A stretch of 64,000 nt of DNA from Gammaproteobacteria bacterium Ga0074134 (GTDB taxonomy: Bacteria > Pseudomonadota > Gammaproteobacteria > Ga0077554 > Ga007554): assembly GCA_001464965.1 (NCBI GenBank), contig LNEJ01000065.1, forward strand, positions 4,548 through 68,547. The letters are read 5' to 3'. Below are positions 35,813 through 39,783 of this stretch, piece after piece (the first letter of the stretch is position 1; the number at the start of each line of letters is the position of its first letter). Below the pieces are notes generated by a model. The model did no database searches and was not told where the DNA came from. It saw nothing but the letters and a program-made list of their open reading frames with translations. Both the position numbers and the translations under genes were made by a program.

Positions 35813-38020
35813 ATGGGTACCCCAATCGCAACCAGCATCCCGGCTTTCTGTGAAGGCATTCAATACTTCGCCGAAGCCCTGCCCGGCTTTGAGGAATATG
35901 CCGCACATCCGGCCATCGCCGCAGGGCAGAGCGCCGTGGCTGATCCTGGCGATGCGCGCGCGGTATTCCAAACCCTGCTGGGGGCGGATGCACTGCGCTA
36001 CCTCACTCTGCAAATGACGGGCTCCAAGGCCTCCGGCCATCCGGGCGGGTTTGCCAGCAGCGCCGAGGCCTACGCCTCGCTGGTGATGCTGGGGCACACC
36101 AACATCGTCACCGAGGTGGGGCATCATGCCCCAGGTTTTTACAGCGCCATGTTCATGGATTCCTCGCTGGAGGAGATGGGCATCAACACGGTGCAAGACC
36201 TGCGTGCGCGCTTCCGCGAGAAGCACGGCTTGCTTGGTCACCTCTCTGGCGCCATTCCCGGCATTCTCGCTCCCGCAGGGCCGCTGGGGCAGGGTCAGCA
36301 CTTCGCCATGGCGGGGGCGATGCTGCACCCTGGTACGCTGTTTCCCTTCACGCTCGGTGATGGCGGCATGGGCGAGCCGTATATCCTGAATGCCATGATG
36401 CACTTCCATGTTGCGTTTCCCGCGATCACCAACTTCCTGCCGGTGCTGATCTGGAATGGCTACAGCCAGGAGCATCACGCAATGGTCTCTTTATTCACCG
36501 ATGAGGAGATGATTGCCTACTGGAAGGGGCACGGCTTTGAGTCCGTGTATCTGGTGGACGCCAAGAATTTTGATGACGCGGGCCAGAGCGGTGCATTTGT
36601 GGATAGCACCCGCTTCTCGATGGGCAATCGTCTGGCATTCACGCGCGCCATGCTGGAAACCATGAGCGAGGCGGCGCAGTCCGCGCTGGGCGGCAAGCTC
36701 ACGGCCTTTATTGTCAAGCAGCTCAAGGGCTCGGGTGTGCATGCGCTGGGTGCGAAGTCGCACAACCTTTATCCCCAGCACACACTTGAAAACGTCGACG
36801 TTGTTGAAGGCCTCAAGCGCCGTGCGCTCTCCCCGCAGGCGTGGCAAATTGTGCGCGACAACTTCAGCCGCGCCGGTGGGGGGCCTGCCGCGCGCACCGT
36901 GGTGACAGAATCGGTGCTGGCGCTGACGCCGGTCACGCATTTGCCCTTGCAGGAGTTTGCTTTGGGTGAAAACAAGCCGCCGACCACGGCGATGGGCGCG
37001 CTGGTGGGCGCGGTGGGCAAGCAGGATGCGCGCTTTCTGGTGACCAATGCTGATGGCAACGAGGCCTCTGGTATCGGCAACATCAACGAGGCATTGAAGA
37101 TTCGTCATCCCACGGCAGATGCGCTGTACCACCAGACGCCTAACGGCCAGGTATACGAGCCGCTCAATGAAGACGCCTGCGCGGGTCTGGCGGTGGGATT
37201 GGCGCTGTTCGGCAGCCGCAGCCTGTGGTGCTCCTATGAGAGTTTTGCCATCAACGGCCTGCCGATTCTTCAGACCGTGACCCAGGCCATGGCTGAGCTG
37301 CGCCGCAAGACACCCAGCGTTGTCACGCTGTTTACCGCCGGTGCACTGGAGCAGGGCCGTAACGGTTGGACGCATCAGCGTCCGGAGATCGAGGCCTACT
37401 TCGCCGCCATGATGCGCAATGGAAACGTGTTCCCGGTGTTCCCGGTGGATGCCAACATGATCCAGGCCGCCTATGCCTGGGCGCTGGACAGCTATAACAA
37501 GGGTGTCATCATCACTGCATCAAAGAGCCCGTTGCCAGTCCGCACCACACTGGAACAGAGCCGCCGCGCGTTGGCCGATGGTGCGATTACGTTGTTTGAG
37601 CATCCCGGCGTGAAGACCATAGTGTTCGCGGTGGTGGGTGACATGATCCTGCTGCCTGTGTTCGAGGCAGCGGAAAAATTAAAGGCGGCGGGCTTTGGCG
37701 TGAAGATCGTCGCCGTGGTCAACCCGCGCCGTCTCTATCGCTCCACCGATGTGGCCTGGGACACGTGCTCGGAGCCGGACAATCTGTTCCTCGACGACGA
37801 CCATTTCAATGCCCTGTTCGATGGCGATGTGCTGTTGGGCGTGAGCGGCGGACCCAGTGGCACACTGGAGCCGGTCATGCTGCGCACCCGTGCGCCGAAG
37901 CGCGACGTGTTCGCCTGGAAGCGTGGTGAGACCACTGCCTCGCCTGCGGAGATCATGGGCTTTAACGGCCTGACGGGCGATAATCTGGCGCAACGGGCGC
38001 GGCAGTTGGCAGGGGTTTGA
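35813..38020 (+). CDS. Divergent phosphoketolase-family (TPP-dependent) enzyme.
   Basis: ~735 aa from the Met preceded by AGGAG. SGHPGG where Xfp has GHWGT. Xfp-like blocks WCSYESF, GWTHQRPE, PVDANM and GVIITASKSPLP. Shorter than canonical ~800-aa phosphoketolases. Confidence 0.65.
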   Translation: MGTPIATSIPAFCEGIQYFAEALPGFEEYAAHPAIAAGQSAVADPGDARAVFQTLLGADALRYLTLQMTGSKASGHPGGFASSAEAYASLVMLGHTNIVTEVGHHAPGFYSAMFMDSSLEEMGINTVQDLRARFREKHGLLGHLSGAIPGILAPAGPLGQGQHFAMAGAMLHPGTLFPFTLGDGGMGEPYILNAMMHFHVAFPAITNFLPVLIWNGYSQEHHAMVSLFTDEEMIAYWKGHGFESVYLVDAKNFDDAGQSGAFVDSTRFSMGNRLAFTRAMLETMSEAAQSALGGKLTAFIVKQLKGSGVHALGAKSHNLYPQHTLENVDVVEGLKRRALSPQAWQIVRDNFSRAGGGPAARTVVTESVLALTPVTHLPLQEFALGENKPPTTAMGALVGAVGKQDARFLVTNADGNEASGIGNINEALKIRHPTADALYHQTPNGQVYEPLNEDACAGLAVGLALFGSRSLWCSYESFAINGLPILQTVTQAMAELRRKTPSVVTLFTAGALEQGRNGWTHQRPEIEAYFAAMMRNGNVFPVFPVDANMIQAAYAWALDSYNKGVIITASKSPLPVRTTLEQSRRALADGAITLFEHPGVKTIVFAVVGDMILLPVFEAAEKLKAAGFGVKIVAVVNPRRLYRSTDVAWDTCSEPDNLFLDDDHFNALFDGDVLLGVSGGPSGTLEPVMLRTRAPKRDVFAWKRGETTASPAEIMGFNGLTGDNLAQRARQLAGV

Positions 38021-38102
38021 TGTAAGGTATAAAGTATCAGGCGCAGGCTCCGTGTGCTGCGCCTGATACATCACTCCATCAACACCTGCGAAAGGAAAGA
38101 AA

Positions 38103-38369
38103 ATGAAAAAATTATTTTCCGCGATTGTGTTCTCTGCGCTGGCTGTTCTCAGTGTTAACGTTTCTTTTGCCGCTGATGCGGAAAAGCTTGATGTCAACAC
38201 AGCCACTGAACAGCAGTTGACTACCTTGTCCGGCGTAGGTGAAGCCAGGGCCAAGGACATTATTAAGGGGCGCCCTTACAAGGCCAAGGATGATCTGGTG
38301 AAAAACAAAATCATTCCCCAATCAGTCTATGACAAGATCAAAGAAAAAATTATCGCCAAGCAGAAATGA
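38103..38369 (+). CDS. Secreted ComEA-like helix-hairpin-helix protein.
   Basis: 88 aa. Signal peptide. VNTATEQQLTTLSGVGEARAKDI HhH motif. Confidence 0.65.
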   Translation: MKKLFSAIVFSALAVLSVNVSFAADAEKLDVNTATEQQLTTLSGVGEARAKDIIKGRPYKAKDDLVKNKIIPQSVYDKIKEKIIAKQK

Positions 38370-38472
38370 TTCGGCAATAAAGCAGCCAAATGTATGGTGG
38401 GTTCGCGCTTTTTGCGCAACCCACCAAGCGTTGCGTAGCAACACAATAGCTTGAGTTTCCAAAGGCCGCGCA

Positions 38473-39783
38473 ATGACCACAACCAAAATCATCGTCCTAG
38501 ACGACGACCCCACCGGTTCACAGACTGTTCACGGTTGCCTGCTGCTGACACGCTGGGATGTCGACGCCCTCAAGGAGGCGTTGGCTGATGCCGCGCCGCT
38601 GTTCTTCGTGCTTACCAATACGCGAGGCATGAGTGCCGGGCGTGCTGCGGAAGTGACGCGTGATGTGTGCCGCAATCTGAAAATAGCGCTGAATGGAGCA
38701 GGCATCAACCCGGTGCTGGTGAGCCGCTCCGATTCAACGCTGCGCGGCCACTACCCCATCGAAACCGATGTGATCGCCGAAGAACTCGGGCCGTTCGATG
38801 CGCATTTTCTTGTCCCTGCTTTCTTTGAGGGCGGTCGCGTTACCCGTGACAGCATTCATTACCTCAAAGTGAATGGCGTGGATATCCCCGTGCATGAAAC
38901 CGAATTTGCGCGCGACTCAGTGTTTGGCTATCGCCACAGCTATCTGCCCGATTATGTGGAAGAGAAGACGGGCGGCCGTATTTCCGCAACTGAAGTTGAG
39001 CGTTTTCTGTTGGCGGATATCCGCCATGGCGTGCTCGACAGGTTGCTGGCTCTGGAAGGCAATCGTTGTGGCGCGGTGGACGCTGAGAATTACGATGATC
39101 TGGCGCGCTTCACGGCGGATGTGCGCGTGGCGGCAGGTCAGGGCAAGCGCTTTTTGTTCCGTAGCGCGGCGAGCCTGGTGAAGGCGCTGGCTGATTTGCC
39201 ACCCCAGCCGGTGGCTGCCGAGGCGATGAGTCAATTCACGCGCAATCACAGTCCCGGTGCTGTGATTGTTGGGTCTCACGTTGAGAAGAGCAGCCGCCAG
39301 TTGGCACGGCTGTTGGAAGAGGCCGGTGCAATGGGCATTGAAGTCGACGTGCGGCGGATTCCAGCAGAGCGCGATGCCGTGTTGCAAGACACATTGAAAC
39401 ACATCAATGCAGCCTATCAAGCTGGCAAAACAGCCGTGGTATATACGAGCCGCGGCGAAGTGCAATTCTCCGATCAGGCCGCGCGCCTGGCCTTCGGCGA
39501 AGCCGTATCTGCCCTGCTAATGGACGTGATACGCAACCTGCCGCAAGATCTGGGTTTTCTGATCGGCAAGGGCGGCATCACCTCCAACGACATGCTGAGC
39601 ACCGGCCTCGCATTACGCGCCGCTCGCGTCCTCGGCCAAGTCGCGCCCGGTGTTTCGGTGGTGCGCTGCCCTGCCGATCATCCGCGTTTTCCGGATATGC
39701 CGGTGGTGATTTTTCCGGGGAATGTGGGGGATGACGATACGCTGGCGCTGGTGTGCCGACGGTTTATGCGTGAGGCTGAGTAG
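38473..39783 (+). CDS. Four-carbon acid sugar kinase family protein (DUF1537/DUF2090; OtnK/DtnK-like).
   Basis: 436 aa. N-terminal IIVLDDDPTGSQT is characteristic of the YgbK/OtnK family. Confidence 0.7.
   Translation: MTTTKIIVLDDDPTGSQTVHGCLLLTRWDVDALKEALADAAPLFFVLTNTRGMSAGRAAEVTRDVCRNLKIALNGAGINPVLVSRSDSTLRGHYPIETDVIAEELGPFDAHFLVPAFFEGGRVTRDSIHYLKVNGVDIPVHETEFARDSVFGYRHSYLPDYVEEKTGGRISATEVERFLLADIRHGVLDRLLALEGNRCGAVDAENYDDLARFTADVRVAAGQGKRFLFRSAASLVKALADLPPQPVAAEAMSQFTRNHSPGAVIVGSHVEKSSRQLARLLEEAGAMGIEVDVRRIPAERDAVLQDTLKHINAAYQAGKTAVVYTSRGEVQFSDQAARLAFGEAVSALLMDVIRNLPQDLGFLIGKGGITSNDMLSTGLALRAARVLGQVAPGVSVVRCPADHPRFPDMPVVIFPGNVGDDDTLALVCRRFMREAE

Follow-up and report, generated by a model that had tools for sequence, protein, structure and literature searches.

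A divergent thiamine diphosphate-dependent enzyme and a DUF1537-family kinase form a conserved proteobacterial module with glycolate oxidase genes

Organization of the locus

The window analysed here is a stretch of 64,000 nucleotides from the genome of Gammaproteobacteria bacterium Ga0074134 (contig LNEJ01000065.1, positions 4,548 to 68,547 of the forward strand). It contains a gene for a thiamine diphosphate (TPP)-dependent enzyme of 735 residues (35813–38020, plus strand), assigned from its open reading frame (ORF), Pfam matches and motifs, and downstream of it a gene for a DUF1537-type four-carbon acid sugar kinase of 436 residues (38473–39783, plus strand). An IclR-family regulator is encoded divergently from the TPP gene (34952–35719, minus strand), as a preliminary description of this DNA had reported. 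The region between the two divergent genes (35720–35812) is read as a putative divergent promoter/operator; it contained a single sigma-70-like match, on the minus strand, and an AGGAG ribosome-binding site precedes the ATG of the TPP gene at 35813.

The kinase gene is followed on the plus strand by the genes of a glycolate oxidase, glcD (41123–42625), glcE (42622–43695) and glcF, which encodes the iron-sulfur subunit (44496–45728). GlcE and GlcF exceeded their equivalog cut-offs (NF008439, 536 bits with a cut-off of 284; NF008434, 690 bits with a cut-off of 333), and GlcD fell marginally under its own (NF008408, 882 bits with a cut-off of 897). The glcDEF genes (41123–45728) were absent from the preliminary description, as were the small gene described below and the conservation of the TPP enzyme and kinase as a module, and their adjacency is the main clue to function.

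The TPP and kinase genes are separated by 452 bp containing a gene for a secreted, ComEA-like HhH protein of 88 residues with a signal peptide (38103–38369, plus strand; HHH_3, 43.7 bits) and two hairpins with stems of 12–13 bp. The first, a GC-rich hairpin of 13 bp, lies directly 3' of the TPP gene (38034–38069, plus strand; -31.9 kcal/mol, z -4.6), and the second, found in the fold scan, lies 3' of the HhH gene (38396–38425, plus strand). Both lack a U tract, and both sequences occur once in the genome. In simple scans for promoters and terminators the number of matches was close to that expected from shuffled sequence, and the stretch between the TPP and kinase genes gave no clear terminator. 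The two genes had been described as co-transcribed; at this locus, where the gap holds an additional gene and two strong hairpins, co-transcription is only putative.

The HhH gene was seen only in the genus and family of the window (loci L041–L043 and L083–L085) and is a lineage-specific insertion between the TPP and kinase genes. A Fic-domain gene outside the module (39801–41021, minus strand; Fic_N and Fic) separates the kinase gene from glcD. It had no match in the closest relatives (L041, L042, L083 and L084), in which the module proteins are 93–97% identical and about 30 bp separate the kinase match from that of glcD, and it is thus regarded as a recent insertion into the operon. From the restricted occurrence of the HhH gene and the missing Fic match in relatives, the ancestral order is therefore iclR, divergent from TPP enzyme–kinase–glcD–glcE–(glutathione S-transferase)–glcF, and the window holds this arrangement interrupted by two insertions, HhH and Fic. 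The glutathione S-transferase gene between glcE and glcF (43755–44414, plus strand), assigned by domain scan and relatives, keeps this position in the genus and not beyond it.

The TPP-dependent enzyme

Every motif that had been quoted for the 735-residue protein was found in the translation of 35813–38020, namely SGHPGG, WCSYESF, GWTHQRPE, PVDANM and GVIITASKSPLP. Pfam returned weak matches to XFP (47 bits) and XFP_N (33.5 bits), which pass only low domain cut-offs, together with Transket_pyr. The protein scored at most 84.9 bits against six NCBIfam phosphoketolase models with cut-offs of 777–1518, missing the family score, and 30–39 bits against transketolase models (TIGR00232, PRK05899) with cut-offs of 488–788; TIGR00232 gave 30 bits compared with 682. 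Identity to diverse canonical phosphoketolases (Xfp) was 22–24%, and these were 30–54% identical among themselves. Among 1.84 billion representative proteins searched, the bit scores showed a gap between a family member at 964 and the closest full-length protein outside the family at about 86. The genome of the window also encodes a canonical transketolase (1014 bits) and a canonical Xfp of 801 residues; the TPP enzyme is 66 residues shorter than the latter, in keeping with the earlier remark on its length, and about 66–90 residues shorter than Xfp generally.

In a maximum-likelihood tree the canonical phosphoketolases formed their own clade (100% support in the Shimodaira–Hasegawa-like approximate likelihood ratio test, SH-aLRT) and the TPP family a separate, tight clade on a long stem. 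Within this clade the proteobacterial members made up one subclade (98% support) and the cyanobacterial members the rest, with Gloeobacterales near the base. With its long branches and midpoint rooting, the tree does not place the family reliably with respect to transketolase and phosphoketolase. Model scores, identities and tree together show that the TPP enzyme belongs to a family of its own, an isolated sister of phosphoketolase and transketolase, and is neither a canonical Xfp nor a transketolase. This agrees with the divergence that the preliminary description had noted, and none of the outcomes named there as refuting it was observed.

The nearest solved structures were phosphoketolases (1.2e-22 with phmmer and 1.3e-34 with a profile, compared with about 5e-9 for transketolase). 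When the predicted model, with a predicted local distance difference test (pLDDT) value of 80, was compared with solved structures using Foldseek, the query-normalised template-modelling score (TMq) was 0.71 to phosphoketolase compared with 0.60–0.65 to transketolase. The enzyme shares with the Bifidobacterium Xfp (3AHC, 3AI7) a three-domain TPP fold and a phosphoketolase-like C-terminal domain, and Xfp is its best match by sequence and profile.

The two cofactor-binding domains resemble different relatives. The diphosphate-binding domain carries transketolase-type motifs: the phosphoketolase motifs GHWGT and EGGELGY are replaced by SGHPGG, a substitution already pointed out in the preliminary description, and AGPLGQG, which correspond to the SGHPG and GPLGQG of transketolase (TktA). 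The pyrimidine-binding domain is phosphoketolase-like, with SYESF containing the phosphoketolase tyrosine and with QGRNGWTHQRPE in place of phosphoketolase QDHNGFSHQDPG and transketolase GEDGPTHQPVE.

An alignment of 82 family sequences from two phyla had 228 invariant positions among the 735. The active-site residues listed for phosphoketolase (PMC10547157) were mapped onto these: the five catalytic histidines His64, His97, His142, His320 and His553 correspond to H76, H104, H143, H317 and H521, the cofactor-activating Glu479 to E453, and Tyr501, Gln546 and Asn549 to Y475, Q514 and N517, all of them invariant. In contrast to Xfp, D547-H548 is replaced by G515-R516 and D555 by R523, again invariantly in the 82 sequences. 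These substitutions fall in or beside the mobile 'QN loop', which has been placed in the phosphoketolase substrate channel (PMC13455062). Read from the sequence, R516 and R523 may make the substrate channel more positive, as would be expected for a carboxylate ligand. Unlike transketolase, the enzyme has Asn517 at the position of the acceptor-reading Asp, and Tyr475 in place of the Phe equivalent to phosphoketolase Tyr501. The acceptor-reading Asp, which recognises the C2-OH of the acceptor, is D469 in the Escherichia coli enzyme.

The kinase and the regulator

The kinase belongs to the DUF1537 family, with SBD_N (PF07005) at 192 bits (cut-off 25) and NBD_C (PF17042) at 132 bits (cut-off 28). 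The preliminary description had labelled it DUF1537/DUF2090; the first part of this label stands and the second gained no support, the C-terminal domain being PF17042. The kinase fitted no characterised subfamily model: DtnK gave 73.7 bits compared with a cut-off of 450, OiaK 23.8 bits compared with 700, and none other matched. The only solved relative matched at an E value of 6e-6. Kinase orthologues were 59–94% identical and in proteobacteria always adjoined the TPP gene. Those DUF1537 kinases that have been characterised act on C4 and C5 acid sugars, and work by Zhang and colleagues from 2016 reportedly included 3-oxo-tetronate among them.

The regulator has both the HTH_IclR domain and the IclR_C effector domain. 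Its best curated model was BhcR (176 bits, below the cut-off of 350), which is the glyoxylate-responsive regulator of the β-hydroxyaspartate cycle. In nearly every proteobacterial locus the iclR and TPP genes were divergently oriented.

Conservation and distribution of the module

Of 400 genomes sampled at class level, 39, from 31 genera, encoded an orthologue of the TPP enzyme. Neighbourhoods of 20 kb were fetched around these orthologues, the proteins of the window were mapped onto these and the flanking ORFs were clustered. A second scan, with one genome per species, overlapped the first set in part, and its best 80 loci were examined. The kinase gene lay immediately 3' of the TPP gene in all 35 loci of the class sample that extended far enough, and in the species-wide scan it was adjacent in 38 of the 38 informative loci among the 39 proteobacterial ones. 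One or more of glcD, glcE and glcF was present within the locus in approximately 17 of 38 cases in the class sample and in 19 of 39 in the species-wide scan, the two sets partly overlapping. The clustering of flanking ORFs gave no further recurrent neighbour, and no dehydrogenase, aldolase, decarboxylase or isomerase. A PdxA2-type dehydrogenase, a class II aldolase, an OtnC-type decarboxylase and an OtnI isomerase were absent from the locus and none was recurrent in the fetched neighbourhoods, which extends what had been noted of the dehydrogenase, aldolase and isomerase at this locus. The regulator, the TPP enzyme, the DUF1537 kinase and glcDEF thus constitute a conserved module in proteobacteria.

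Homologues of the TPP enzyme with more than 70% identity numbered thousands in sulfur- and iron-oxidising autotrophs (for example Thermithiobacillus, Sulfurifustis, Sulfuritortus, Sideroxydans and Sedimenticola), and at least 564 species in the species-wide scan had a relative. Within the class sample the large subunit of Rubisco was encoded by 37 of the 39 module-positive genomes compared with 143 of 362 module-negative ones. The two positive genomes that lacked it are 81% and 86% complete, and the genome of the window itself encodes a form I Rubisco.

Cyanobacteria, among them Nostoc, Tolypothrix, Microcoleus and Gloeobacterales, supplied approximately 40 of the 80 best loci of the species-wide scan, with identities of 70–73%; overall the cyanobacterial orthologues of the TPP enzyme were 63–73% identical. 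A sample of 151 Cyanobacteriia genomes contained the TPP enzyme in 122 and a kinase orthologue in 143, and 120 of the 122 TPP-positive genomes also had the kinase. The pairing of the two proteins, which the preliminary description had taken from a single locus, is therefore not accidental. The cyanobacterial genes are unlinked, with the sole exception of a Chroococcidiopsidaceae locus (L136). The neighbours of the cyanobacterial TPP gene (Uma2 nuclease, P450, COP23 and proteases) gave no metabolic clue. In one Gloeobacterales genome, glcE- and glcF-like genes immediately precede the TPP gene and share its strand.

Three further observations were made in these samples. A cyanobacterial family of multicopy proteins of about 220 residues with two transmembrane segments and no Pfam match (L136:4593-5258, L164–L166, L112:10371-11027, L142:10333-11034) is encoded immediately 5' of the kinase gene in several genomes and, in two, immediately 3' of the TPP gene; the genome of the window does not encode it, and it gave no metabolic clue. 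Relatives of the kinase with 36–50% identity occur in cyanobacteria of 1.6–2.7 Mb that do not have the TPP enzyme (for example G456, G536 and G549). In one genome (G312, locus L076) the TPP gene (truncated, with two TGA stops), the kinase gene (split into two pieces that overlap) and the canonical xfp gene (with several stops) all look broken, which could reflect joint decay or errors of long-read assembly.

Metabolic context

Acetate kinase (AckA) was found in 32 of the 39 module-positive genomes, canonical Xfp in 31 and a phosphotransacetylase (Pta) over the Pfam cut-off in 8. Seven of the 39 had no AckA, no scoring Pta and no canonical Xfp, and in the five of these that are of high quality PduL was also searched for and not found; all five carry the module and GlcE. 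The seven AckA-negative genomes fall among the eight that are Xfp-negative and the ackA and xfp genes are often adjacent, so AckA is regarded as the partner of canonical Xfp. In the genome of the window the acetate kinase gene adjoins a glycogen-phosphorylase-like gene and pgi, away from the module.

Glyoxylate carboligase (Gcl) was over the cut-off in none of the 39 module-positive genomes; it was rare everywhere (4 of the 400), so this gives no contrast. Malate synthase was found in none of the five complete module-positive genomes. As neither was detected, the module-positive genomes appear to have no recognised major glyoxylate sink, and the module is the only partner of glycolate oxidase conserved in the sampled sulfur and iron oxidisers. 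A known glycerate kinase was present in three of the five complete genomes, that of the window included, where its gene neighbourhood was uninformative. A second glycerate kinase (PF02595) in the same genome (G000:C6:5500-6604) matched as two adjacent pieces and may be frameshifted.

A search of the genome of the window for an OtnC-like decarboxylase returned a class II aldolase-fold gene of 209 residues and, as a second match, an ORF of 658 residues on contig C56. The 209-residue candidate lies beside an acireductone dioxygenase gene; it is therefore probably MtnB and was rejected as OtnC.

A possible glyoxylate ketolase pathway

Taken together, the gene neighbourhood, the Rubisco association and the family assignment indicate that this is probably a glyoxylate- or glycolate-linked, Rubisco-associated module whose TPP enzyme is neither Xfp nor transketolase. 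We infer the link to glyoxylate from gene context; the chemistry set out below is conjecture built on the reaction repertoires of the two enzyme families. Transketolase and phosphoketolase both form dihydroxyethyl-TPP from a ketose phosphate, and the conversion of 3-oxo-tetronate 4-phosphate to dihydroxyacetone phosphate (DHAP) is the OtnK/OtnC chemistry of tetronate catabolism.

In the reading that we prefer, with a probability of about 0.3–0.4, the TPP enzyme would act as a glyoxylate ketolase, and the module would process glyoxylate that stems from photorespiratory 2-phosphoglycolate and glycolate. GlcDEF would oxidise glycolate to glyoxylate, and the IclR regulator would sense glyoxylate or a related keto acid, de-repressing the operon. 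The TPP enzyme would draw a C2 ketol from a ketose phosphate of the Calvin cycle (xylulose 5-phosphate, fructose 6-phosphate or sedoheptulose 7-phosphate) to give dihydroxyethyl-TPP, and the ketol carbanion would be added to the aldehyde of glyoxylate, held in a small-anion site made more positive by R516 and R523, to yield 3-oxo-tetronate (2,4-dihydroxy-3-oxobutanoate), a C4 acid sugar that ends in CH2OH. The DUF1537 kinase would phosphorylate this product at C4, and the resulting β-keto acid 4-phosphate would lose CO2, either spontaneously or by an unlinked enzyme, to give DHAP that returns to the Calvin cycle. The net reaction would be xylulose 5-phosphate + glyoxylate + ATP → glyceraldehyde 3-phosphate + DHAP + CO2.

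Such a reaction would need no more than two dedicated genes and no acetyl-phosphate-using enzyme, and it would account for the association of the two genes with glcDEF and an IclR sensor, for their confinement to Calvin-cycle organisms and for the arginines gained in the small-anion site. A tentative extension of this scheme, less likely than not, is that the module serves as a natural route of phosphoglycolate salvage in the majority of cyanobacteria and in many chemolithoautotrophs that oxidise sulfur, iron or nitrite and lack gcl and malate synthase.

Several observations weigh against the ketolase reading. The phosphoketolase-specific Tyr501, Asn549 and Gln546 are kept, which points to dehydration and phosphorolysis over ketol transfer, and an OtnC-type decarboxylase is not linked to the module. 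The route would retain just one of the two glycolate carbons. The raw association with Rubisco is overstated because related genomes are not independent. The kinase must have at least one role independent of the TPP enzyme, since it occurs in 143 compared with 122 of the 151 cyanobacteria, including small TPP-negative genomes, and its wider spread in picocyanobacteria is not explained by a ketolase. A Synechocystis mutant without the three known glyoxylate routes reportedly already needs high CO2, which would argue against a high-capacity fourth route in that organism. Finally, the ratio of the sll0529 transcript between ambient and high CO2 is 1.10 only (PMC7744508).

Alternative functions

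The strongest alternative is genuine phosphoketolase activity on a new substrate, in which an acid keto-sugar or the phosphorylated product of the kinase would be cleaved with phosphate to acetyl phosphate and a shorter fragment, for instance glyoxylate or tartronate semialdehyde. It is in this direction that the fold, profile and sequence comparisons point, and all mappable residues of the phosphoketolase list (PMC10547157) are conserved or conservatively changed, including Y475 and N517 where transketolase has Phe and Asp. Acetate kinase is also common in module-positive genomes, although it tracks canonical Xfp rather than the TPP enzyme, and scoring Pta is confined to 8 of the 39. Phosphorolytic cleavage to acetyl phosphate had been suggested in the preliminary description; that proposal is weakened by the seven genomes that have neither AckA nor a scoring Pta nor canonical Xfp, including the five of high quality in which PduL was not found either. 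A cleavage yielding glyoxylate would moreover run counter to the adjacent glycolate oxidase, itself a producer of glyoxylate. Recombinant Alr1850 of Anabaena, a putative family member, reportedly had no Xfp activity. On balance we consider a phosphoketolase with a new substrate unlikely.

Less probable still is a role in the supply of a vitamin B6 precursor, in which the TPP enzyme would make a C4 hydroxy-keto acid or glycolaldehyde for 4-hydroxythreonine and the kinase would phosphorylate the 4-position for PdxA and PdxJ, filling the gap left by Epd and PdxB. The attraction of this proposal is that Dxs, PdxA and PdxJ are present throughout the cyanobacteria, all of which are without Epd and PdxB/PdxR, that DUF1537 kinases can phosphorylate 4-hydroxythreonine according to work cited in the same source, and that GlcD/GlcF-like genes of Desulfovibrio share fitness patterns with pdxA and pdxJ (PMC9997740). 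It would also suit the presence of the kinase in 143 of 151 cyanobacteria, including genomes of 1.6–1.8 Mb, and the five complete module-positive proteobacteria, in which PdxJ was found in 5/5, Epd over its cut-off in 0/5 and the PdxB-specific domain in 0/5. B6 synthesis is, however, universal, while the proteobacterial module is confined to Rubisco genomes and to about a fifth of those. The PdxB-specific domain occurred in 2 of 39 module-positive compared with 11–13 of 80 module-negative genomes, which shows no clear complementarity, and the TPP enzyme is missing from 29 of the 151 cyanobacteria. Isomerase and aminotransferase steps would additionally be required, and an IclR-regulated operon with genuine glcDEF orthologues resembles salvage or catabolism rather than cofactor synthesis.

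A non-homologous glyoxylate carboligase would convert two glyoxylate to tartronate semialdehyde and CO2, the kinase then acting on glycerate, formed by an unlinked reductase, or on hydroxypyruvate, to give 3-phosphoglycerate or 3-phosphohydroxypyruvate. This proposal draws on the same context as the ketolase (glcDEF, Rubisco and canonical gcl in 0 of 39) and on the ability of the superfamily to decarboxylate 2-oxo acids, as in DXS and in transketolase acting on hydroxypyruvate; two of the five complete module-positive genomes also lack a known glycerate kinase. The other three, that of the window included, already have one, the fetched neighbourhoods show no recurrent reductase or isomerase, and the characterised DUF1537 substrates are C4 and C5 rather than C3, which leaves a carboligase improbable.

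The view taken by database names and cyanobacterial modelling papers, that the enzyme is a redundant Xfp isozyme ('Pkt2') acting on xylulose 5-phosphate or fructose 6-phosphate with a functionally unrelated kinase, is very hard to reconcile with a score of 85 bits against phosphoketolase cut-offs of 777–1518 and a separate clade, with canonical Xfp coexisting in 31 of 39 genomes, with strict kinase adjacency in proteobacteria and with invariant substrate-loop substitutions, and one such paper itself calls the activity never verified (PMC7744508).

Comparison with known systems

The glyoxylate ketolase reading would combine features of several described systems. The transfer of a ketol to an aldehyde is transketolase chemistry, and the TPP enzyme shares with transketolase the superfamily fold and the N-terminal motifs given above. 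In contrast to Xfp, it occurs in genomes without a detectable acetyl-phosphate-using enzyme, and the DUF1537 kinase is always its partner.

The OtnK/OtnC branch of tetronate catabolism uses a kinase of the same family, and the 3-oxo-tetronate 4-phosphate and DHAP proposed here would be identical to its intermediate and end product. Unlike that branch, the module has no linked OtnC, OtnI, PdxA2 or tetronate dehydrogenase, its kinase lies outside the characterised subfamilies, its substrate would arise inside the cell from glyoxylate rather than by import, and its hosts are autotrophs. Catabolism of tetronate or erythronate, which the preliminary description had put forward for testing, overlooks the adjacent glycolate oxidase, the restriction to Rubisco autotrophs and the spread through cyanobacteria.

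When the module is compared with the known routes of glyoxylate and phosphoglycolate metabolism (the Gcl glycerate route, the malate cycle, the C2 cycle and the β-hydroxyaspartate cycle), the shared features are a start from glycolate oxidase to glyoxylate, a regulator of the IclR type (BhcR, AllR, IclR) and, as in the Gcl route, a TPP enzyme that would perform the first C–C step. The differences are that gcl (0/39) and malate synthase (0/5) were not detected, that the fold class of the TPP enzyme is not that of Gcl and that the module kinase is of another family than the known glycerate kinases.

The cyanobacterial Pkt2/Xfp2 (sll0529, alr1850) is probably of the same family; the cyanobacterial gene differs in lying apart from the kinase gene, L136 excepted. 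Family members in Nostocales are annotated as 'phosphoketolase', 'transketolase' or 'hypothetical'. In the modelling literature sll0529 is Pkt2, a putative phosphoketolase 2 of unverified activity (PMC7744508). A figure legend on low-carbon regulation by NdhR/CmpR names it as a putative transketolase of unknown function; this regulation responds to 2-phosphoglycolate (PMC7281370). The family is thus already known, being annotated in databases and noticed in cyanobacteria as 'Pkt2'. A literature search gave nothing relevant that links phosphoketolase-like enzymes, DUF1537, glycolate or 3-oxo-tetronate, and the literature searched contained no report of the DUF1537 pairing, the glcDEF/IclR linkage, the Rubisco restriction, the separation from Xfp or an assay. 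If confirmed, the chemistry may be a new pathway.

Owing to the oxygenase reaction of Rubisco, glycolate and glyoxylate have to be disposed of wherever the Calvin cycle runs aerobically. The disposal of glycolate by chemolithoautotrophs has been resolved essentially only in Cupriavidus necator (PMC7486775). About 80% of the cyanobacteria sampled have the TPP enzyme, which models of these organisms treat as a redundant 'phosphoketolase 2', and whichever reading is true would bring a new reaction for the transketolase/phosphoketolase superfamily and corrected cyanobacterial flux models. It could also supply either a photorespiratory bypass for the engineering of crops and autotrophs or the closure of the Epd/PdxB gap in B6 synthesis.

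Flanking genes and environmental occurrence

The Pfam/NCBIfam scan of ORFs placed pilB (30971–32695), pilC (32701–33933) and pilD (34057–34935), all on the plus strand, directly upstream of the IclR gene; this flank of the module varies among other genomes. Housekeeping genes lie 3' of glcF. No RNA run was listed as containing DNA near-identical to 35700–39800; the matching runs, which may include the source sample, were all metagenome DNA runs from activated carbon, biofilters and drinking water (three studies, 2015 and 2024).

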